Assembly: GCA_964106915.2 (NCBI GenBank)
Contig: OZ066914.1
DNA from: Podarcis gaigeae
Lineage: Eukaryota
Length of the DNA stretch: 64,000 nt
Direction: 5' to 3' (one strand)
The notes under the pieces: model-generated
Seen by the model: only the letters and a program-made list of their open reading frames with translations
Told to the model about the DNA's origin: nothing
Database searches by the model: none
Program-made: the position numbers and the translations under genes
Shown here: positions 15,078 to 64,000 of the stretch, one piece after another
How positions within the stretch are numbered: the first letter of the stretch is position 1
Layout of the letters: the number at the start of each line of letters is the position of its first letter

Positions 15078-16567
15078 ACAATTTGAAACCAGACAATGCC
15101 AGTGCATGGGATATACATTCATACAAGGATTTTTTTTCCTAATCAGAAAACAAGTCATATTTCTTATATAATACACAAAAGACATTTTAAAACAAGATCA
15201 GGGCTCCCAGAGCCATTCACAGCCTCCCACTCAAACATCCATTCAACCCTCCCATGCCAATTTGCCTCTCTTGGTTTCACAGTGAGAATGCACATCAGCT
15301 TTGGACATTATAAATACACAAAAGATGCACCTTAACTGGCCAAATAAAGAGTTCAGCAAGTAATGCTACCAATAATTGTTATTTCATTCTCTCCATCATA
15401 CTCCAATACACGGCTGTTAAAAAGCAGCTTCCATCACACACTTTGAAAATTGGAGTTAAAAGTTTATCCTTTTTTTATTTGAAGACCAAATTAATGTATG
15501 TTAAATAGACTCAAACCTATACAAATGAAAGGGGTTCTATCTGGTTCCATCAATGCAACAGTCTAGGATGTTCGGTGCTACTGTCCTAGAAAATGTGGAA
15601 TGTGTTTGGAAGCAACTTGGGTTTGCAACATAAAAGTGTTAGTAAAAATTCATTACTGGTTCCACTCAGACCTGGTAAAAAAATGAGCAACAGCTCTCTT
15701 TTTAAAATGTAAGCACCAAAACAACAAGGGTTTTAAAAATGTTGAAAGTATTTTCCAACTAGTTTGTAAGAAGATAGGGTTATTTTTATTGGCTGCACCT
15801 TTCACCACTGAATCTAAGGAATGTCTCTGCATTTTTTGTTCTTAATTTTGAACTTATGCAGGACAGAAGCTTTATGGGTGCAGCTTAAGTTGCAAATGGA
15901 GAAATGATAGCATTCCATCCATGTCCAAGTAATTAAGAAGATAGTAAAACAGAAGACTACATTATATTGGGAATTGTTCTATCAGACCTCTGAGGTCCCA
16001 CCTAGTAGGCTGAATATTTAACAAGGTGGGTTTCTTCCACATAACTTTACATGCTTCGGCTGATTATTTGCAGTAGTATATGATCAGCCTCATAAAGGGA
16101 AGGTGTTCAACATAGCAGTTCTGAAGCTATCCTTTCTTTTCTTAGGATTCTGAATAACCAGCATCAACATGATGTGAAAATGCCACTTCATGTATGAAGC
16201 TTCTCCAGGGATGTATTGGGGGCAGGGGGAGCGGCATTCTAACTTGTATAAAGTCTCCCATTTTTATTTTTAAAGAAGTCTTAGATAAAGAGAGTGTTTA
16301 AAAAAAGCAGTTAAATTACAGCAACATACTGCATGCCCATATTGAAGTTAATGCTTCACAGTCTACTCTGATCACCCAACCAAGTCATATTAACTAACAA
16401 TGCAAGAAGCTACTAACTAAGAGTGTGGGAGATGCGGGTGGGAAGAATCTTTCCCCTTTCAGCAACCAGAATGCCAATTTTTACATTGGCAATCTGACAC
16501 ACACACACATGCAAGCATGCATATATTAACGTACATCAATACATGCTCTCCTGCACTCTCACCTCTC

Positions 16568-16640
<73 letters not shown>

Positions 16641-18100
16641 TTTCTACTTTCCCCAGATTAAGCTCAACAGCATGTCCTGTGTAATGTAACTTGAAAGGAA
16701 ATTCCTGTTGTGAATTGTAAGGGAAAGATAAACTCATTACTGCCACTACTGCTTTGCGTTTCCCTCCTCCCTGCCCTCAAAATCCTTGAACAGGGACTCC
16801 ACACCCATCTGATAAGGCCCACAACAAGCAGAGGCCAATGTACAGGAGATGTGGGGCACTGGCATAAATGTGAAAAGGGGTATAGACCTAGGGTTCTCAT
16901 TTTTTAATTTATAGCAGATGCCTTGAGCATCTTAAGCCACACTTAATCGAACCTTGAGCTTACAATGTGTGTTCTCTCCGGACGACATAGAGGCTTTTGC
17001 CAAAGCAGAGGCCACTACAGGTAAGTCATTTGAAGAGCAGCATTGGGCTGATCTCATATGCAACACAAAAAAGCAGCCTTGCAGAAGCTACTTTGCAAAG
17101 GAGAAATATCAAGATACACAAACCCAGGAATTGGCCACTCAACAACAAAGGAGAACTCTCTTAGTTTGCAGTCCCCACTGGAGTAATTTCACAGTTATCA
17201 ACAATTGGAAAAAATCTGGGAAAACCCGCTTGGAAAAGTTTAGTTTTGCCATATGGGCCTTGGAACAGTTTAGAACAGAGGACTACTATACATTCCTTCA
17301 CCAAACTAGGCAGAGAAATATACCTGGACAGGATAAAGAGAGTCGATTCTCTTTGTGTAATAGTGGATGGTGCAATACTTGGCACGAGGCACAAATGGCA
17401 AGATACTGCTAGCACCTGAATCCCATTTTACCAGATCTGAAAGGTCCTTAGTATGAAAGGGACCTGTTGATGGCCACAAATTCTGTCTCAGGGCAACATT
17501 TCTTCATCTTTATATGTTCACCAAGAATAGAACAGTTTGTTTATCCCATTCCAACTTAAAAAAGAAAGCAAGATGTGCATCTTCACAAAATACCAAACAT
17601 ACAAGGTAAAAACTGCTATCATGCACACGTGGCAGCACTATAGTGCGTTGGTTCAGTCCAGTAAAGACGTCTGGCTGATAAAATACCCTTTCACTGTATG
17701 GTAGTAGCTTGCGGTATAACCTTCTGAATGGACACAGAGGACTCGTGAGTATATACTCTGGATAGTTTTGTCTCCAGCAGGTTTCACACCCTTCCAGGGC
17801 AGCTGCCATTTAGTCCTCTTGTGTGATGAAGTTTTGAAATAGAAAGGTTATATAAATTTTCAGAGAAGCCACAAACAGCATCTTCATTTTAAATGATAAC
17901 AAACAGGGTAGTAGTGATAAAAAATACAACCGGTCTGTTTCTTCCAATGCGTTAAGTTCTTTTTTTAAAAAGTCTGTAAAAATATTTTGCACAACCTTCT
18001 ATATCCATCCATTCATGATAAAAAGTCAAATACATGAAATAGGGTTTTATTTCTATACAGTTATACTCGCAAGGCAATCAGTCCTCCTTGGCTGGCCTTT
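15055..18100 (-). other. RASSF7: Predicted RASSF7 3' UTR (~3 kb)
   Basis: Follows the exon 6 stop, is AU-rich and nearly free of transposon fragments, and ends at the best-supported polyA signal. Confidence 0.6.
16571..16636. repeat. Compound microsatellite (CT)19(CA)14 in the RASSF7 3' UTR
   Basis: Read directly from the sequence. Confidence 0.97.
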
Positions 18101-18132
18101 TTACCTCCAGATGCTCTGCTTTGCTGACATGA
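18101..18132 (-). CDS. RASSF7: RASSF7 terminal coding exon 6 (alternative C-terminus VMSAKQSIWR*)
   Basis: Pyrimidine-rich acceptor atttatttttatatgtcttgcag|TC; phase 1 matches donor GAGG|gtgtgt at 20644; TAA at 18103-18101. Resembles the S...WR* ending I recall for non-mammalian RASSF7 (not verified). Confidence 0.75.
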
Positions 18133-20629
18133 CTGCAAGACATATAAAAATAAATGAAGTGACCCCATTATGATGGCTTAGTGTTTGATAAACCAGAAGA
18201 CGAAGACAGAGAGGAAGGCAGGGGTGGGGAGGGAGGATATGCTATTCCATGCAATTGCAGATTCAAACATAAATAGCGACAGATTCTTCATGAAAGCATG
18301 ATCAAATTGAAATGATCACACAAGAAAATTTCAGAGGTGTACCTTACTGTAGTATCACAAAATGGGAAAGCCCACCTAATCTGTACCATAAGCATAGAAA
18401 ATTAGTTTAAGTCAACAGAGAATTTCATGATCATTTGCTCCGATATTCAAAGCAAAGTATCAGCATTCTCAGAAGCCATTCTCACCATTAAAATATGCAG
18501 AACTCTCCAAGAACAGAATACCAGCTTGAGAAAACCAACTCTGATTTAATATAGCACAGCCAAGAAAATAGATAGAAAGGCTGTTGTGATGCTATAACTG
18601 TAAAGGATTCCTAGCTCTTTGTTGTGATAAGACTAAGATTCCATAGCCATCAAAAATGGTTATGGGGGTGGGAGGGAACTGCAAGCTATAGTCAAGATAA
18701 TTTAAAGCCCCAAAAACTGCACCTAGATCGCTTCTGAAATAACTTCTGATCCGGCTTTTAATTTTAACCCTCTCTATAGACTCAGTCAAGAAGGTTGCCC
18801 ACAAAGTGAAGGTTGCTGGGATGAGGACCACCACCACACTCTAGTGGAGCATTCCACAGGAATCCTTTTTAAAAAGAGAACCCACTCAAACAAATGGGAC
18901 CTGCCCAGGACAAGTTAACAAGATATAAATCTATTTGCATAGATAAAAACGTTCAAACTGGATATTGGGCCCATCATCATTGGCCAATTAGATCACCAAA
19001 CTATTATTCCATGGGTTGGGTCCTAATTCCCACAAAGTGATATCTTCACCAGCATCACCATTCAAGGGTTTAAAAACTGGTCTGGAAAGACAACGTGGAC
19101 ATACTGCATTACTTGCCTTGCTGTGACTCAAAGTTGCTTTGACTAAGGTCCATAGGGACAACACTGTGGAATACACGGATTGCATTACAAAACACTAAAT
19201 GTTCTGTCTGTCTGTCTCTGTCTCTCTCCCTCTCTCTCATATGACACCACTTCACAGGATGTGAGTGGCAACCTTATACTTTGTGCTGGTTTTCAGCCAG
19301 GCTGTCTAAAATTACCATTTGTTTCCTTCAGAGCTAAAATAGTTCTTGGCATCCACCTGTCTTGAGAGACAATGGAGTGCACCTCTGGGGGTGAAGTCAA
19401 ACCACTGCAATAGCAGCACCAAAGTGACCTCCCTAGGGCACAAGTCTGGGCAGTGTGCATGAAGATCCTGGGCTGGGGTCTGTGGGGCATTAGGGGAGGG
19501 GTAGCTCCGGTGGGGGACACATCATGCTCCTTCCAGGGTAATTTGTTCACCTTTGGTTCCCAACATGTACTCATGTGCTCACCTGTGGCTCTTAGAAGCT
19601 GTCAGCATGCAACAACAGCCATAACCCAGGAAATGGCTTCAACTGACCAGCTAAACCAGGAAGCTAAAACTGTGTCTTATTAAAACAAGGAATGGGAACT
19701 TCTGGTCCTGACGTCATATGCGGGGAACTCGATCACACAGCCGATCCATGCAGAATGCAGGGTAGAACTCACTGCTGGACAGCAAGTACAGACTAGCATT
19801 TTAAAATTGTACAGACCAGTTCTGGTGCACTTTGAAGCAAGATATTTCATATCCTCAGCATACGGGATTAAAATTTACATTTGTCAAATGAAACTAACAA
19901 TGGTGGATGAAGAAAGGGGTGCAATTAATCCATCAGGGATATCCAGCCACACATTCTGTAAGAGTTTATAAAAGAGAAAAGATCCCCTTGCAATCAACTC
20001 TTTAGGAATCTAAGCTGCTAACTAAAATATGAGACATTAAAGGAATTTGGCAGAATGACCTTGGGTGAAGGACAAGCGAATTGCATATGCAGGGCTTTTG
20101 TCTTTGCTAGTGAAGTTTTAAATAGGCTTGAACTAGCAAACATCCTCAGCTGAGTAAGCAATACTGCACTGTGTAGCTAAAGCAACTGCTCCGAGACAAA
20201 ATGCCATCCTGCAAGCGATCAGACTGTTACTGGTGAGTGTCTATTGATCTCTCAGCCACTGCACAGTGGAGCAGTCTTGGCCCAAGCCTATCATGTCATA
20301 TGGCAGGCATAACTTCCTGTTATTCTCTGCTTACTCCCACCCTCAGCTTCTCTTCCCTTCTCTTTGGTTACTGCTGGCCCCAACATGCTACAGTTTATGG
20401 GTACCCCCTGCAAAACAACCAAGCTACTAGCTGCTGATTCAGGGAGCAGGGAGAGAGGAGGAGGAGGAGCACAGAAGGCAGGAGAGAAAAACTGAGGAGT
20501 AGAAGAAGAGTTTGTAGTAACAGCCACCTCCTTGCAGATGAAAGCTGCCCCCCACTATAGCAAGATTAGGATGTCTGGAGGACTGCTTGACAAGACCAGG
20601 TTTTCAGCACACAAGAGGCTTAGGGCAGT

Positions 20630-20751
20630 TCAAACATACACACCCTCAGGGTTCAAGCTGGACACCAGGGGGTTCTGAAGGTTTCGTGGATTGCCGAGGA
20701 ACTGCTTGGCTGTGGCTCGGGGAGGTGAATCTGTGCTGGGCTCAAGTAGAT
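20630..20751 (-). CDS. RASSF7: RASSF7 exon 5, read-through form ending ...SSLNPEGVYV* (spliced form ends at 20644)
   Basis: Acceptor ttttccctag|AT (phase 1); encodes DLLEPSTDSPPRATAKQFLGNPRNLQNPLVSSLNPEGVYV then TGA (20632-20630); resembles the RASSF8 C-terminus (LQNPISSGFNPEGIYV, from memory). Confidence 0.87.
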
Positions 20752-21954
20752 CTAGGGAAAATAATCACGGTGACAGTTCAGTTATCCAAAAGTACAACAA
20801 AATAGCCTGAATTTTCAGGAGCAGCACTTCAATACACATTTCCTTAAGCTCAGCCTTTCTGGAGTCATACCTCCTTACATTCTTTGGGTTTCTGAACTTT
20901 GGGTATATATATGTAACTGGACTTTATGCAATGCACTGGAGTTACACCTTTGGTTTTGTTCTCCACCACCACCACCACCCTGCCCCATTTGTAGCATAAT
21001 CAGTACACTGTAAGTACACACAATGCTCCCAATTCGTTAACCAGAGTTAAGAGGTCAAGAGATGGCCATGTGATTCAAGTTCCCTTTCCTGTCCAGTACA
21101 TGGCAATGAATCTGAACATATGCAACTGAGTATTGCTTCCCTGTTTATCCCTCCCTCCCTTTCCTCTGTGATGAATTTCAGATAGCAAGCTGCTCAGGGC
21201 AGATACCTTCTCTCTTATACTCTGTACAAACAAACAACAACAACCAATGTTTGCATAAACTCACGCTACAGCATTACCATGGTCTGCTTCTGCTGATTTG
21301 GCTGGCTATGCAGCCATGGAAACACTGCTTACCACATAACTAAACAACAGACTGTTGTCTCCCCCCCCCCCAAAAAAAAAACACCCCACCATTATGGTAA
21401 ACTTTAAAGCTGCTTAATTGGTATGTGGCAATATGCTTTCTTCTGGCAAAGGATCTCAGACTTTTTAAGGCACCCTTCCCCCTCATCAGTGGTGCCCAAC
21501 ATGCGTCCTGTGCTGCCACTTCTAACCCACATTTGCAGTTGGTATCTCTGCTATTTCATCCCAATTCAGCTTTCTCTGGCTGGATAAATCACTATCGATC
21601 GTGGAGTACTAGTGGACCCAATTTCTGTGACCAGGCAGGCAGGCAGGCACCAGCATTTGCCATTGATTGATTTTGTGGAAGGCCACACCTTATTCTGACA
21701 CCACATCAGTGTGAAAAATCAGTAATAATTGTGTATTGGTGCAAAAAGAAAAACAACAACACCCAAGCCTGTTCCATACATGCACGCTGTCAACTTCAAG
21801 ATTTTTCTTGGAAACTAGAAAAATTTATACCTGAGGTGGTGCTGCATTGTGCAGGTCATGCCAAGACAGACCCAGGGAACTACACTGCTGCAATTGCTGT
21901 CCACATTCCACAGCAAGAGCTTCCGCACAGGTGGGTCCCCCCCCCCCCAAAAAA

Positions 21955-22075
21955 ATGAGCTGTATTCAGCTAAGTCTTACTCAGAATAGACCCACTGAAA
22001 TTAATGAACCTAAGTTGGTAATGTCCATTAGAGTCAATGAGGCTGCCTGGAGGAGGGCAAGTGTTGAATATCATC
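21955..22075. mobile_element. Degraded palindromic MITE (Harbinger-like), related to 57948
   Basis: gtattcagctaagtcttactcagaatagacccactgaaattaat...gttgaata; shares its core with 57948-58057. Confidence 0.5.
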
Positions 22076-23077
22076 CAGTTAGTTTCTCATTTAGGCTGGC
22101 CTGTATGCAGCGGCTGCAAAGTTATGGGAAGGCTAACATATCTTCAAAGACTGGGCTAGCTAGCTAAAATACCATAGGATGCTGGGCTTTGAGAATGCCA
22201 GATCTCAGTAGAACCCCTCTCTCTGCCCATGAAAGCGTAAATCTGTAGCATTTAAGATGTCACAATACTCTGTGTTGTTTTCCCCCTGAAGCTGAGATAG
22301 GCAACTAGCAGAACAGACCTCTAGTCCAGACCATTTCCCGGAGGCTGCCCACCCAGATACTATGTTAAAGGAAATATTCTTGAATAAGTGGGAAGGGGAC
22401 CATATTTCAGTTGACACCATCACTGCTGTAGTTGTGGACCTTTGTAGTGCTTAACGGCTTGATGCTACCTTACCACACAAGGCAAATTCAAAATCTATAT
22501 AAATGCTTTTAGACATCTACCCTGTTTAAGCTGTGTTGCACTTCTTGTAATATGTGGGAATCCAGAGTTTAACATGGAGCAAGTTCAACAATCAGAAATT
22601 GACTTTTTCCTTTCTTAAATAGTTGTGCTAAATGTCCCACTTTGAACTTCCAGTTTTTCTTCACATTCATTTTTAGGTATATTTTCAGAGGAAGCTCTAC
22701 CTAGCACAGTGTTTGGATGCAAGATCCATACAGCAGAGTTCAGGCAGATGCCCAGAAACCTATCCACCTTCTCCCCCCACCCCAACTGCTATTCCCTGCT
22801 ACTGCAGTATAGATTTATGGATAAGTTGTATCTGCTGTCCATTTGTTTCTCCAGCCAGATAATTTTAAAGGGAGGCTTCAAAGAAAGCCACACCAATGCA
22901 TTTCCATGGGTTGCTGATTGTTTGCTGATGTCACAACTAGAGGCCAGAAAACTGGGGATATTGACATTCCCTACCAGCTTACATGAGAGGAAGCACAGTA
23001 GGAGGCCTCAACTAAAGTGAGGTCTCCTGCCTCCCCTCTCCCCCCAACTTTGCCCACCCTTTGACTTGTGTTCCAAC

Positions 23078-23246
23078 CTCCGGTTCTCTGGTGAGCCAGC
23101 AGCTCAGAGCTGGTTTCATCCAGCTGGGGTTCCGCTTCTGATCTGGGCTGTGGGGAAGTCACCATGGCTCCTGTCTGCTGGATGAACTGCTGCAAGTTAC
23201 ACTGCCTCAGCTCCTTATTTAGCTCCTCCAGCTCTTGGTTCTGGGC
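23078..23246 (-). CDS. RASSF7: RASSF7 exon 4 (C-terminal coiled coil), 169 nt
   Basis: Acceptor atcttgcag|GCC; encodes AQNQELEELNKELRQCNLQQFIQQTGAMVT...HQRTG plus 1 nt. Donor GAG|gttgga is weak but is the one that keeps exon 5 in frame. Confidence 0.88.
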
Positions 23247-24564
23247 CTGCAAGATATAGGAGGAACAGGCAGAGTGAACTTATCTTCATCTGAGATATGA
23301 AGCTGCAGAAGAAGGGCTTCTGATCCCACCCCAGCCTCCTCCAGCTCGCTTCTCTCTGCTTCTTGACCATTAGCAGAAATCTACCAGAAACTACATGAGC
23401 TGACAGGAATAATATGGTAGGTGGCTAGATATTCATTCCTGGATGCTTACACATTCCAAAAGCTTCTTTATCATGAAGTCAGCATCTGCTGGCAATCTGG
23501 TGTGGGTCTTTGTGGTGGGTGTTGGGGTGCAACTGAAGATCTATCCACCAGTTCTAGACAACTTGCTAGCAAAGCATCTAACCCCAAACAATCTCAAGCA
23601 CACCCCCACCCCACTCAGGTGGCCCATTTTCCTCTTTGCTAACAGAATGACAATATTTTCTCTTCCTTCTAAATGTGGCTGAAGATGGAGACTGAAACAT
23701 AAGAGCAAGATAACCCTTGTATTCTGACCGTGCTATAAAGACTGAGCATAGACTGAGAAAAGCACAGACCTGCAGACAAACAATCTATCTGATTCTCGTA
23801 ATGGCTCTTGTATGTTACGGTAGTCTATTTATTTAGCTCTCAGACAGTGAGCGTGCTGCTTAATTGCTCCCACTTCATTGTGCCCTGCCTGCAGCCAGGA
23901 GAAACAAACCCACAGATGTGCATGGGCCTATTATTATTCTTACAGTTTGGAATTATTTTAATGGGTCCCCCACAAACCCATACACGATCATGTCCTTATA
24001 ATCAGAGTCTGACAGAGGCAAAAGAAAAAAAAGTACAGTACAGTACACAGAATTTCCTCTACTTGGCCATAAGATGGCACCAACGTCTAGGCAACAATTA
24101 AACAAGAACCAGGAGAAGACTCGGGACTATTACTGCTGCTTAAAGCAAAGAACAGAAAAGAAGCAACAGCTGCCTGTGTTTTGAAGATGCACATAATTAA
24201 CATGTTGCTATAACACCTTCAAACACAGATTTCTAATAGCTAAATTAAACTAGAAGCAAACACGAGGATACAGTACTTTGCTTTCCCCGGCAATGTTCCT
24301 GAGCAAAATCACAGTTCTGAGCTTCCCTCCTCCAAAGGCAAATAATTCTGCTTGTGTTGCTGCTGCTGCAACGGAAGTGACTAAGCTGGGTGAAACACAC
24401 CTGATGTATTGAATGACATGCCTGCAGTGCAAGCAGGAAAAATCAGAGAAGTGATTCATGCAGGGATACAGCAGGCTGGTTCTGCTTTGGGCTCACAGAC
24501 GACTAATTTTTATTTCAAATATTATTATTTTTACCACACAGTAGTGTGCTTGGTGCACAGTTTG

Positions 24565-25807: not shown

Positions 25808-26706
25808 CTGAAGGCTTTGCTCTGCTTCCTCCAAGGCCTTTGCCACAGTTTCCAGGCTGCTCTCCAGGTGGGCACTCTGCTTGGCCTTAGCTTCCAGATC
25901 CCTTTTCATTTTAGCTGCCATTTCTTCTAGTTCACTCGGGCTCTGCCTCGGGGCTTCCTTGGCCCTCTTGGAAATCTCCCACTGAATTTCTCTCTCCAAG
26001 GCCTCCGTTTTCACCATAAGCTCGTGTATTTTTTGCGTGTACTCCTCCATGGTAGCCCGCAGGGTGTGGACTTTCTCCTGGCGCTCCCTTTCGCACTCCT
26101 TCTCTGAGCGCAGTTCACTCTGCCAAAAGCCTTCCTCACCCAGCTCACTCTCGTTTTGCCGAATCAGCTGCTCCAGGTGCAGGATCTCGTCCTCCTGGCA
26201 GGAGCCTCTGTTGTGTTCCCAGTGCCGGAGGTCCATTTCCAAGGCATCCCCCTGCATCTCCAGGGAGTAGAGATGCTCCTGTTGGTGCAGTATGGTCTTG
26301 AACAGTTCCTCCTTGGAAAGCAGACCCCCACTAGCACCTTCCCTCCAGCCCACGCTGTCCTTCTTGTGTTGCTTCAGCTTGTTCTTGGCAAGCAGGTCAC
26401 TGGAGGCCATAGGGCCCAGGTTGAAGGTTAAGGATTTTTTGGGCTGCCTGGGCCTGGGCACTTCTGTGCCGACCAGCCTGGGTTTGATGGGCAGGCTAGC
26501 CCTGACAAACGTCCTCTCGGGTACCTGGGGAGCACTGTCTGAAGAAGGTCTCTCGGTGAGGCTGGGGCCCGTGCGCTGCAATATGAACTGCACGTCATTG
26601 GCATACTGTCCGCACTTGGCCATGGACTCCACAGGGCATTCATGTGGGAGAAGCTGCCTCTCTTTCTCACGTAGTCTTTGGATGAGAACATAGCGACCTG
26701 TTTGAC
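25808..26706 (-). CDS. RASSF7: RASSF7 exon 3 (rest of RA domain, linker and coiled coil), 899 nt
   Basis: Acceptor ctcttctcag|GT (phase 1) gives GQTGRYVLIQRLREKERQLLPHECPVESMAKCGQYANDVQFIL...ALEEAEQSLQ; donor CAG|gtatgt; contains ORF 25772..26632. Confidence 0.96.
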
Positions 26707-30089: not shown

Positions 30090-30192
30090 CAATGGCACGT
30101 GCCAATGCTATGACAACCTCCTGGCATGTGGTCTGTTCGGAGACACCGCATACAACCCGCTGGACACCATCCACCCAGACCTTTAGCTCCAT
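30090..30192 (-). CDS. RASSF7: RASSF7 first coding exon (exon 2 spans 30090-30240 including 48 nt of UTR); N-terminal RA domain
   Basis: ATG at 30192 in strong Kozak context (GTG ATG G); encodes [34 protein letters not shown] plus 1 nt; acceptor tctttgcag|G at 30241/30240; donor G|gtaagt at 30090/30089. Too short for the ORF track. Confidence 0.96.
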
Positions 30193-61049: not shown

Positions 61050-63681
61050 TACTGTTCCTTTAGACAAGGAGGACAAAAAATGTAAGGCATTCCCTGTTTA
61101 AGTGTTTGTACTATCAAATCAGAATATATTTTAATACCTTTTCATTCAGCAATTTCTTACAGCTTTGAGTAATCTACATACAATGTATACAACAAATTAT
61201 TTAAAGATAGTATTCCTTTTCATTAGATTCTGCTTATACATTAGAAAATATTAAAGTTGGAGCCATGGTTTATCCTTTCAATATTGCATATGCCCCATAT
61301 TGCCTTCTAGGCTTTTTACTTCAACTGTCTATCTTTGAACAGTGTTGTTGGATAGCTGGAGTTGGAGAGAACGTTTTGCTATAGCCTTTGTAGTACATTA
61401 GACAGTGATGCAGCCCAGAGCCATAGCTGGGAGGGGTAGCTGGGGGTTTTTTGCAGGTGATGCAGCCAGCGCCACCACTCAATACCTATGATTTCCTTAT
61501 CTCAAGGAATCCTGTACTCATTTGAGTTTGAACAGTGCACATAAAACTCAACATATGGTGAGCTCTGGAATACATTCACTGCATTACCCACCTGGAACTT
61601 GCTCATCTCCATAAGGTCAGGATAGTATTTGCCTCATTTTAATTCCTTCCTTCATGCTTTTTTTTAAATTAAAATGTCTACTGCATGTTGCACTGAGGCT
61701 TTCACTGACCAAACCTTCCATAACAACCGCCAAGCCTCTTCTGGGTGATTATAATTAGAACCCAATAAGGTGCATGAGTAAATCAAATGAATCCTTTTGA
61801 TGTACGCTACCTTGCTTTTGTCAACAGAAGAGTAATTTGTGTAAGGTCACAACCCAAGTCAGTAACGAAACTCCGCACAAACCCCCAGAGGGTTCCAACC
61901 CAGGGTCACATGATCCAACAATGCCACCTAATACAGGAAGTCACTTGGGGAAAGGGGTTGAGCACAGGACAAGCCCAAGGGGAGCAGCCAGATTTACACA
62001 ACAGGCATAGCTGTTTATGGCAGATTCACACATGTTTACCTTATCCAGAGAATCTGCTTATAGGTATCACTTCTAAAGGGGCTTATTCTACTCCATGGAC
62101 TGACTAGTGAAGCTGCTGCGTGTCTGCATCAGGAAAAGGGAAGCACATGCAAATTGGTCTCTGCTGAAAAGTCGCAAATATTACATTGTTAGCCAAGCTC
62201 TACAAGATGCCTTCCTTCTACTCTCAGTTTATTATGTCTGAAAGTCAAAGCAAATGCAAAGCAACTGGCAGTTCAGCATTGGTTGCAAAGGGATTTATTA
62301 ATGCAGGGAAGTGTATAAAGTTACATAATGGAAAAGGCTGTTTGTTTCATCTCCTTAACTTTAGATGGAGCCTCGCGGAAAAGCAGAAAACCTGTTGCCA
62401 GGCTGAGTGTAAACACAACAAGTGCAATTAAAACGAAGTCTGCTGCACTGTTGGTGCCACCTGTGCCTACTCATCCTCGCCTCCTACCAATCACTTTGAT
62501 AGTTGCTTGGTACAGTAAAATGTTTCTAATACAAGATGTTCTTGAGCAGATAGAGAACTGTGTTGGGGGGAAACAATTACATTTTCAGAAGAAAGGAGGA
62601 GGAGAAAATATTGCACCAAAGTCTTAAACACTGTACTTCCAAATAAGTACAGAGGATTGCAGTCTTCTAGCCTACTGTTATGCACGTTTACTGATAAGAG
62701 GTTTCTGGTACAGCTCACATGCATTCACAGACTGGTTTCTTTTTTTATAGCTGTTGATACATGCTCTGAGCCTTAGGGGTAGGGTGGGTCAAATAGCAGA
62801 GTTCAAGGAAGAGGCCACATGCTTATAAATCTAGCGCAACAAGGAACATGTATGCATAGCTGAGCCTCAGCTGACTGTAAATCACAATACATTGCGGTGC
62901 ATTTGGTGGGTGTTTGCGGTTCAAGCTTCAATGGCCAATGCGTGCTTCAGTTTCAACATCGCAATGAGATCTTCTCACGGTTTGGGGGGGGTAGGAAAAA
63001 AATCAACTAACTTTACATAGGGAGAGGGAAGCCCATCCCGCCGCGCCGCCAGAAGAATTAAGCCCGCAAGGCCATATAATCTGATTTTACGGCAGGCTGA
63101 GCATCTTCTGAAAAGCCCAGGAGCCAATAGGCAAACGGCGGAGCCAGAGACTCGGTCCTCAAATATGTGCGACTCTCGGGGGCCGAAGCAAAGAGACGCG
63201 AGCAGGTTGAACAGGCTAAGCCGCTCCGCCGAAGGCTGCGAGCGAGTGGATTTTCCCCAAGGAATGGAAACGGCAGGCAGATCGCGAGGTGGCCCCACCC
63301 TCCCCCAGTAGGGGACCAGCAGGGGGAAATAAAAGTGCCGGGTGATTCGCCCAGCGGCTGAGTCCCAACTTGTGGAAGGCGCTGCCCATGGCAGGAGGGG
63401 GCCCACAATACAAAGGTCCAAGGAAACCAAGGGAGAGCGAGAGACGTTCCCGGCGACCAGCGGGAGAAAAGAAGAGGCATCTGTTGCGGCTCCCGCGAGG
63501 GAAGCGGGCGGAGGGGGGTATAATTGTGTGAAGAGGCGGGACTGGAGAGAAGGGGGTTCTGGGGCTCCAAAAGTAAAGGCAGGAGGCGGGTAAATCGCAC
63601 GGGACAACACGGAAACGGTGTCCGTGTGGGAGGCAGGGAGAAAGAGCGACCCGAGAGTCCATGGCGCGCACACTCCCTTAC

Positions 63682-63990
63682 CTGGCCGAGTCTCCGCTCG
63701 CTTAAGCCGGGACAGAAACAGCCGAGCAAATCCTCTTTCCCGAGTCCAGCCCCTCCGGCGGCGGCTGTGCGGCTTCTTTCCGCCTTCTCTCGGCGCTGGC
63801 AGAACTGCTCCTGCCTCCCGCGGCGCAAGGTCACCCGCTCCCCTCCAGTGGGCGAGCTGGCCCCTCGGTGTCGTCGTGCAGCATTCCGCTTCGCTCTTCT
63901 GGCTCCGGGTTTCGTAAAGCGCCCCCCACGGCCACGGCCCCCCGCGAGGGTTGCAGCAAGTTGCTGGCTCGCTCGCTCGCTCGCGCACTA
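63682..63990 (-). other. RASSF7: Predicted non-coding exon 1 (5' UTR) of RASSF7
   Basis: Strong donor CAG|GTAAGG at 63682/63681 inside the CpG island, with a GCGA-repeat leader near 63965-63985. The TSS is not determinable and may lie beyond the window. Confidence 0.7.
63831..63884 (-). promoter_or_regulatory. Candidate uORF MLHDDTEGPARPLEGSG* in exon 1
   Basis: The only minus-strand ATG I found in the predicted exon 1; G at -3; valid only if the TSS is upstream of 63884. Confidence 0.4.
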
Positions 63991-64000
63991 GGAGCCTCGG

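Follow-up and report, generated by a model that had tools for sequence, protein, structure and literature searches.

In the RASSF7 gene of Podarcis gaigeae the same few bases can be read as the 5' splice site of the last intron and as the last codons of a shorter protein, which raises the question whether the choice between splicing and keeping this intron gives the protein a predicted PDZ-binding tail or takes it away. The window analyzed is a stretch of 64,000 nucleotides (contig OZ066914.1), in which the gene lies on the minus strand. The spliced protein is identical to Podarcis lilfordi RASSF7 at 434 of 439 residues, and a separate RASSF8 paralog ending in GIYV was located on G000:C21 of the same genome; thus, the gene is RASSF7. 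Pfam finds the RA domain (PF00788) on exon 3 and at residues 2-80 of the near-identical protein P0124, and an HRAS-cluster synteny look at four neighbouring ORFs gave no Pfam match. The RASSF7 of the window is without three residues (ERA) at about position 281 in exon 3, which are present in five other lacertid RASSF7s. Positions 62001-64000 are CpG-rich (96 CpG in 2 kb, GC 0.525) and are a likely promoter. The features used below are the following:

30090-30192, minus strand: first coding exon (exon 2), with the ATG at 30192 and the start of the RA domain; N-termini match named RASSF7 proteins.
25808-26706, minus strand: exon 3, with the remaining RA domain (Pfam RA PF00788) and most of the protein; Zootoca RASSF7 is 95% identical.
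23078-23246, minus strand: exon 4, with the ELEELNKELRQCNLQQFIQQTG block; an alternative donor extends the exon to 23058; seen in junction reads.
20644-20751, minus strand: exon 5, with the conserved FLGNPRNLQNPLVSSLNPE segment; a second frame ends in WCPA-stop at 20655-20653.
20630-20643, minus strand: dual-use bases, the 5' splice site of intron 5 and the (G)VYV-stop codons; seen in sequence, junction reads, stranded depth and conservation.
18133-20643, minus strand: intron 5 (2511 nt), mostly spliced and in some transcripts retained as 3' UTR, according to the depth in run X24.
18101-18132, minus strand: coding part of exon 6, (V)MSAKQSIWR-stop, homologous to the tails of teleosts, frogs and mammals.
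16972-18100, minus strand: 3' UTR of exon 6, reaching at least to 16972, the edge of the read-mapped interval; stranded depth 2.4-14 in X23 and X24.
19346-19614, no strand assigned: dispersed-repeat-like stretch in intron 5 with unstranded depth and loose ends, which draws reads from elsewhere.

The minus strand reads AAC CCT GAG G/GT GTG TAT GTT TGA across the end of exon 5 (the slash marks the splice site), with the TGA stop at 20632-20630. The acceptor, TTGCAG/TC ATG, lies at 18133/18132, and the stop codon of exon 6 at 18103-18101. When exons are joined by coordinate, the unspliced form has 430 amino acids and ends in NPEGVYV, and splicing from 20644 to 18132 yields 436 amino acids ending in NPEVMSAKQSIWR. 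The original prediction had proposed exactly this double reading, and its donor-acceptor pair and both protein lengths were reproduced. Class II PDZ-binding motifs are defined by hydrophobic residues at positions 0 and -2 of a free C-terminus, and the V-Y-V-stop end fits this pattern, as had been proposed. With the base composition of the intron, the chance of [VI]-[YFW]-V-stop following the GT is 5e-5, and that of [YFW]-V-stop alone, counting codons from intron position +6 on, is 4e-4. The donor AGG/GTGTGT agrees with the consensus at 5 of 9 positions and is only moderately strong (introns 2 and 3 have donors with 7/9 and 8/9). The acceptor had been called strong; with 12 pyrimidines in 16 positions it is an ordinary one, within the range of 11-13 of the other acceptors of the gene. 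A scan of the whole intron confirmed that minus-strand AATAAA is absent from it and that two ATTAAA variants are present (18550-18545 and 18762-18757); the next AATAAA lies in exon 6 (18051-18046).

To compare the two forms at the RNA level, four raw-read runs of a related species, chosen by species label from 24 listed runs, were placed on the interval 16972-23451, with 6-12% of each run read. Reads across the junction 18132-20644 (skip of 2511, CT..AC) were found in two of the four runs: X23 has 2 of them, and X24 has 10, which begin at 8 starts. The support thus comes from two bulk runs of one study; X21 and X22, both single-cell runs, gave no usable information. The preceding junction, 23078>20751, was covered by 3, 8, 0 and 2 reads in X23, X24, X21 and X22, respectively. 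In X24 the sense-strand depth is 3.43 across the 216 nt adjoining the donor, compared to 17 exon 5 reads at 20734, and it amounts to 0.7-5.3 in every non-repeat bin of intron 5 versus 0-0.5 in the non-repeat bins of intron 4. Retention of intron 5 is therefore roughly 20-25% in X24 and selective for the last intron, an estimate that leaves out reads at 19346-19614, ~21361-21391 and 21978-22016 (repeats or poly-G). The stretches at 19346-19614 in intron 5 and at 21978-22016 in intron 4 are repeat-like and draw many reads from other loci. In X23 four bins beside the donor have zero sense-strand depth, but exon 5 has just 5 reads in this run, a depth so low that a tissue difference between X24 and X23 cannot be claimed.

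The short form had been suggested to arise by retention of the last intron. Depth running through all intron 5 bins, with no end site listed, supports this over polyadenylation within the intron; the low depth, which dips to 0.73 after the ATTAAA at 18762 (small counts), weakens it. The suggestion that such an mRNA escapes NMD holds in part: no junction was seen downstream in the RNA runs, but the argument is incomplete, since a 3' UTR of 3.6 kb or more on the retained mRNA might still lead to EJC-independent decay or to retention in the nucleus. Within the 3' region, reads of the RNA runs continue past the canonical AATAAA at 18051-18046, which lies 50 nt beyond the spliced stop, and AATAAA motifs at 16268, 15790, 15479 and 15077 are candidates for the real transcript end.

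Sequences of other species give independent hints. Six of 28 hand-picked Logan-only non-mammal proteins end in GVYV; they lie on contigs of 1.5-1.9 kb, which must join exons 2-5, pointing to spliced RNA. For Xenopus laevis, Q2T9I1/AAI11513.1, a record named as an MGC clone, ends in GVYV, and ABR21988.1 ends in EVLSSREASWT. In the Hyla cluster, 51 contigs carry the spliced form versus 3 with GVYV among the Logan members listed, and none of the lacertid records (best 15 of 17) has the GVYV end. The spliced form is the commoner one. Taken together, junction reads and stranded depth show both RNAs, as expected from the original prediction, and we are nearly certain that both are real.

A moderate donor (5/9) could also simply be leaky, so that the two proteins arise in a more or less constant proportion and GVYV is a functional minor isoform which backs up RASSF8, without any regulated switch. 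The roughly 20-25% retention of X24 agrees with this explanation, the zero out of about 5 reads in X23 could result from an equal rate, and the tail is lost in birds and mammals (see below), where RASSF8 could cover for it. Set against this are the six of 28 Logan proteins that run into the intron and the Mobula and mormyrid entries, for which only the unspliced end is found among the records listed; both hint at sample-dependent ratios. We consider a fixed ratio unlikely. That the ratio is regulated by tissue or stage is in our view close to an even question, leaning slightly towards no.

To follow both tails across vertebrates, proteins were collected in three homolog searches (best 120 of 248, 1243 and 1210), three cluster look-ups and one representative search (best 150 of 653). 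Altogether, 547 records were put into clades by hand, from names or cluster neighbours; they include several isoforms per species, so that the counts are those of annotations and not of independent events. The unrelated short members P0393 and P0638 and unnamed representatives were left out of the clade counts. P0532, which is labelled Lampetra planeri but has a teleost RASSF7 tail and is possibly a contaminant or mislabel, was counted under teleosts.

An end in GV[YF]V-stop was found in 46 of 321 records of fish, amphibians and non-avian reptiles: lepidosaurs 4/70, turtles 4/25, crocodilians 1/15, amphibians 16/66, lungfish-like 1/2, teleosts 17/135 and cartilaginous fish 3/8. It was found in none of the 76 bird and none of the 150 mammal records. 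The spliced tail is present in 25/70 lepidosaur, 2/25 turtle, 0/15 crocodilian, 34/66 amphibian, 0/2 lungfish-like, 102/135 teleost, 0/8 cartilaginous fish, 24/76 bird and 70/150 mammal records; records with neither end are truncated or other isoforms. Both ends, 6 amino acids apart, occur in one species in Xenopus laevis, X. tropicalis, Eleutherodactylus, Hyla, Esox and Cyprinus. The ten-residue spliced tail can be aligned between teleosts (VLTSRESSWR), frogs (VLSSRETSWT) and mammals (VAPMRQNSWR), and a 14-3-3 or C-degron role of its SWR/IWR end is conceivable. Rays and mormyrids show a conservative change of Y to F (GVFV); ray records have the GVFV end only, and the elephant shark has GGVFV and, with a doubtful relation to exon 6, GEFHHWRE. 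Exceptions are one caecilian record ending in PEGWL and one skink record with PEGVLPALS.., which may be losses or other splices.

The original prediction had confined the switch to reptiles. This was too narrow, and a reptile-only reading was rejected: teleosts and frogs have both tails, and the GVYV end occurs in a lungfish-like record too. Outside birds and mammals, the comparison of orthologs showed a conserved V-[YF]-V-stop in the bases that follow the GT. Two outcomes had been named in advance as speaking against the prediction, a single expressed form and bases that are not conserved; neither was found, except in birds and mammals. All 14 bird read-throughs are without V[YF]V-stop and keep a trace of the motif (GAYVPAGLRE, GAYIPGEGLR, GVYVPVSPSE), and mammalian read-throughs (GMSIPH, GTSASP, SMSCLP) show no trace of it.

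Birds and mammals splice at the same position without the YV-stop bases, so that splicing does not depend on them; where they are kept, selection at the level of the protein is the best explanation. This bears on the possibility that the retained form is a slowly splicing or detained pre-mRNA which is never translated, with GTGTATGTTTGA preserved for a role in the RNA, as part of the splice site or in regulation, and the resemblance to RASSF8 as a relic. Last introns are often spliced late, the donor itself constrains intron positions +1 to +6, and the long 3' UTR could cause decay, all of which would be in line with an untranslated RNA. However, all the way from teleosts to lizards the codons past +6 and the stop have been preserved, with Y to F as a conservative change, whereas birds and mammals use this splice site without having them, and the X. 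laevis record Q2T9I1/AAI11513.1, named as an MGC clone, ends in GVYV. We regard this explanation as very improbable and hold it to be highly probable that the GVYV protein is made and selected.

The ancestry of the tail was investigated in RASSF8 and the wider family. RASSF8 of this genome ends with AAC CCA GAG GGC ATT TAT GTA TAA; the peptide class is shared with RASSF7 and the third bases are different. Since its Gly codon is GGC, RASSF8 does not have a GT donor at the tail position. Among 146 further family representatives, 45 end in [GS][VIML][YWF]V, with GVWV the commonest and GIYV also frequent; a lamprey record ends in NPDGIYV, and distant family members end in NPEGIWV or NPHGVWV. This agrees with the proposal of an ancestral RASSF8-like tail, and the occurrence in these representatives and in lamprey suggests that the tail predates the split of RASSF7 and RASSF8.

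Conservation is not confined to the last residues. For the 22-residue segment preceding the tail, the median number of identities is 22 in lepidosaurs, 21 in teleosts, 15 in birds, 12 in amphibians and 7 in mammals; the control blocks beside this test gave 18-22. A joint decay of segment and GVYV was not used as support, since frogs keep GVYV despite a drifted segment (median 12/22). The extent of the conservation allows a different reading, in which GVYV is translated and selected and is not a PDZ ligand: the true motif would be the whole end of ~25 residues (LGNPRNLQNPLVSSLNPEGVYV), recognised either by RASSF7 itself or by a domain other than PDZ. Conservation indeed reaches ~20 residues upstream, past the 4-5 residues of a canonical PDZ-binding motif (PBM), and the segment is recognisable in the distant members with NPEGIWV or NPHGVWV ends. 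When exon 5 together with the tail was compared to the PDB, no solved structure matched the segment at E<=10. In addition, RASSF7/8 baits did not recover PARD3 and DVL, polarity proteins found with RASSF9/10 (PMC4019981). On the other side, the 45 of 146 representatives preserve the terminal Val and a hydrophobic -2 position at a free C-terminus, and the C-termini of paralogs are demonstrated PBMs. The ESLV end of RASSF10 is needed for binding of MAGI-3 (PMC7954791), and the PBM of Meru, its last four residues, is needed for binding of Baz (PMC5493435). A non-PDZ ligand is quite unlikely in our assessment, and by analogy with RASSF10 and Meru the partner of the GVYV tail is probably a PDZ domain.

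Further literature was examined with respect to partners and localisation. The end of RASSF8 is termed a potential PBM (PMC7954791), and the binding of Magi and RASSF8 in the fly goes through the WW domains of Magi (PMC4830575). RASSF8 is an afadin-proximal hit (PMC11810119), and a centrosomal role is described for human RASSF7 (PMC2922839); the words isoform, splice and PDZ do not occur in the main text of the latter paper. The idea that the tail toggles RASSF7 between junctional and centrosomal pools is unsupported: human RASSF7 is a junction-proximal hit (PMC8423818) although GVYV was found in no listed member of its cluster, and the missing polarity partners of the RASSF7/8 baits undercut the idea as well. 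No description of a RASSF7 tail switch was found in the literature searched, with most subscription papers and supplements outside its scope, and a search for the tail motif gave unrelated matches only, among the matches listed.

RASSF7 has additional C-termini. A third one, missed in the original prediction, uses the second frame of exon 5 and ends in ..HETFRTPWCPA. It is reached in two ways: by the alternative donor of exon 4 (junction 23058>20751, 3 reads in X24), as in 432-amino-acid lacertid isoforms, and by skipping of exon 4, as in 369-amino-acid isoforms of reptiles and birds. With its stop ~10 nt short of the exon 5/6 junction, this form would escape EJC-dependent decay. A comparable end, RCPA, was found in eight marsupial records. 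WCPA was rejected as a CaaX box, since its Cys is at -3 and not at -4. When the great-ape records P0647, P0648, P0655 and P0457 are compared to P0650 and P0432, the apes end in ..QPRPRGGPHDAELLEV..QPQAL and the colobine record in LGPEVAPMKQNSWR. Judged from these protein ends, a change of frame in apes seems to affect both the end of exon 5 and the last exon, so that the SWR tail would be lost as well.

We propose the following explanation for these observations. The ancestor of RASSF7 and RASSF8 would have ended in NP[ED]G[IV][YWF]V. No later than in the bony-vertebrate ancestor, a GGT Gly codon of the RASSF7 branch could have become the donor to a new last exon. With a moderately strong donor, part of the mRNA would keep the intron, have no downstream junction and be translated, so that the retained-intron mRNA likely makes a protein with the ancestral NPEGVYV tail, a predicted class II PDZ ligand; in the commoner spliced form, four residues would be swapped for a younger tail of ten. 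The YV-stop codons, kept over the about 430 million years of bony-vertebrate divergence, may be under selection for a free hydrophobic C-terminus that the short protein requires, probably together with the ~20 conserved residues before it. RASSF7 is a member of a complex with ASPP and PP1 (PMC6377682), and the splice ratio would set the amount of RASSF7-ASPP-PP1 scaffold with a PDZ handle. As a whole, the explanation that splicing or keeping the last intron switches a predicted PDZ tail off or on is the one we favour, with reasonable though limited confidence. A wider version is rather doubtful: here an ancient C-terminal motif would be seen in the middle of its replacement, regulated retention of the last intron would dial a PDZ handle on RASSF7-ASPP-PP1 on and off in fish, amphibians and non-avian reptiles, birds and mammals would have independently fixed the "off" state, and apes would have shifted the replacement tail out of frame.

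In RASSF7, 14 bases have been donor and end of a protein motif since the split of bony fish and tetrapods, and the losses in birds and mammals provide natural controls. For work on N-RASSF, ASPP and PP1 in Xenopus and zebrafish this means that there would be two RASSF7 proteins, one of them RASSF8-like at its end, and results would depend on the isoform. Loss of the tail suggests one reason why mammalian RASSF7 and RASSF8 behave differently; if the switch is indeed regulated, the two would differ largely by the lost isoform. The significance is bounded by the facts that splice control of PDZ motifs is known, that both tails are already annotated and that humans are without the switch.

Several known systems can be compared to this one. 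In SYNGAP1, too, alternative splicing at the 3' end decides on a PDZ-binding C-terminus (alpha1 with QTRV versus alpha2, beta and gamma; PMC9064290). SYNGAP1 uses alternative acceptors and reading frames and has a class I motif, whereas the predicted class II-like motif of RASSF7 lies in the first 14 intron bases, overlaps the donor and is exposed by retention. RASSF8 and the single RASSF7/8-like proteins of invertebrates share the RA domain and the NP[EH]G[IV][YW]V tail, and human RASSF8A and RASSF8B differ through a different C-terminal exon (PMC2586335). RASSF10 and Drosophila Meru, also N-terminal RASSF proteins, require their last four residues to bind MAGI-3 and Baz/Par3, respectively. 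The ESLV of RASSF10 is a class I motif that was tested by deletion, with no splice switch mentioned in the part of the source available, whereas GVYV of RASSF7 is class II-like and predicted. Human RASSF7A-C are known C-terminal splice variants (PMC2586335); they are not this switch, because no mammalian record examined has GVYV. The RASSF7 isoforms X1 and X2 in RefSeq and UniProt already contain both tails in frogs and fish, annotated automatically and without interpretation. A splice-switched C-terminal PDZ motif is thus a mechanism that is already known, and RASSF7, with its predicted motif, is a well-conserved case of it that is new to the literature searched.
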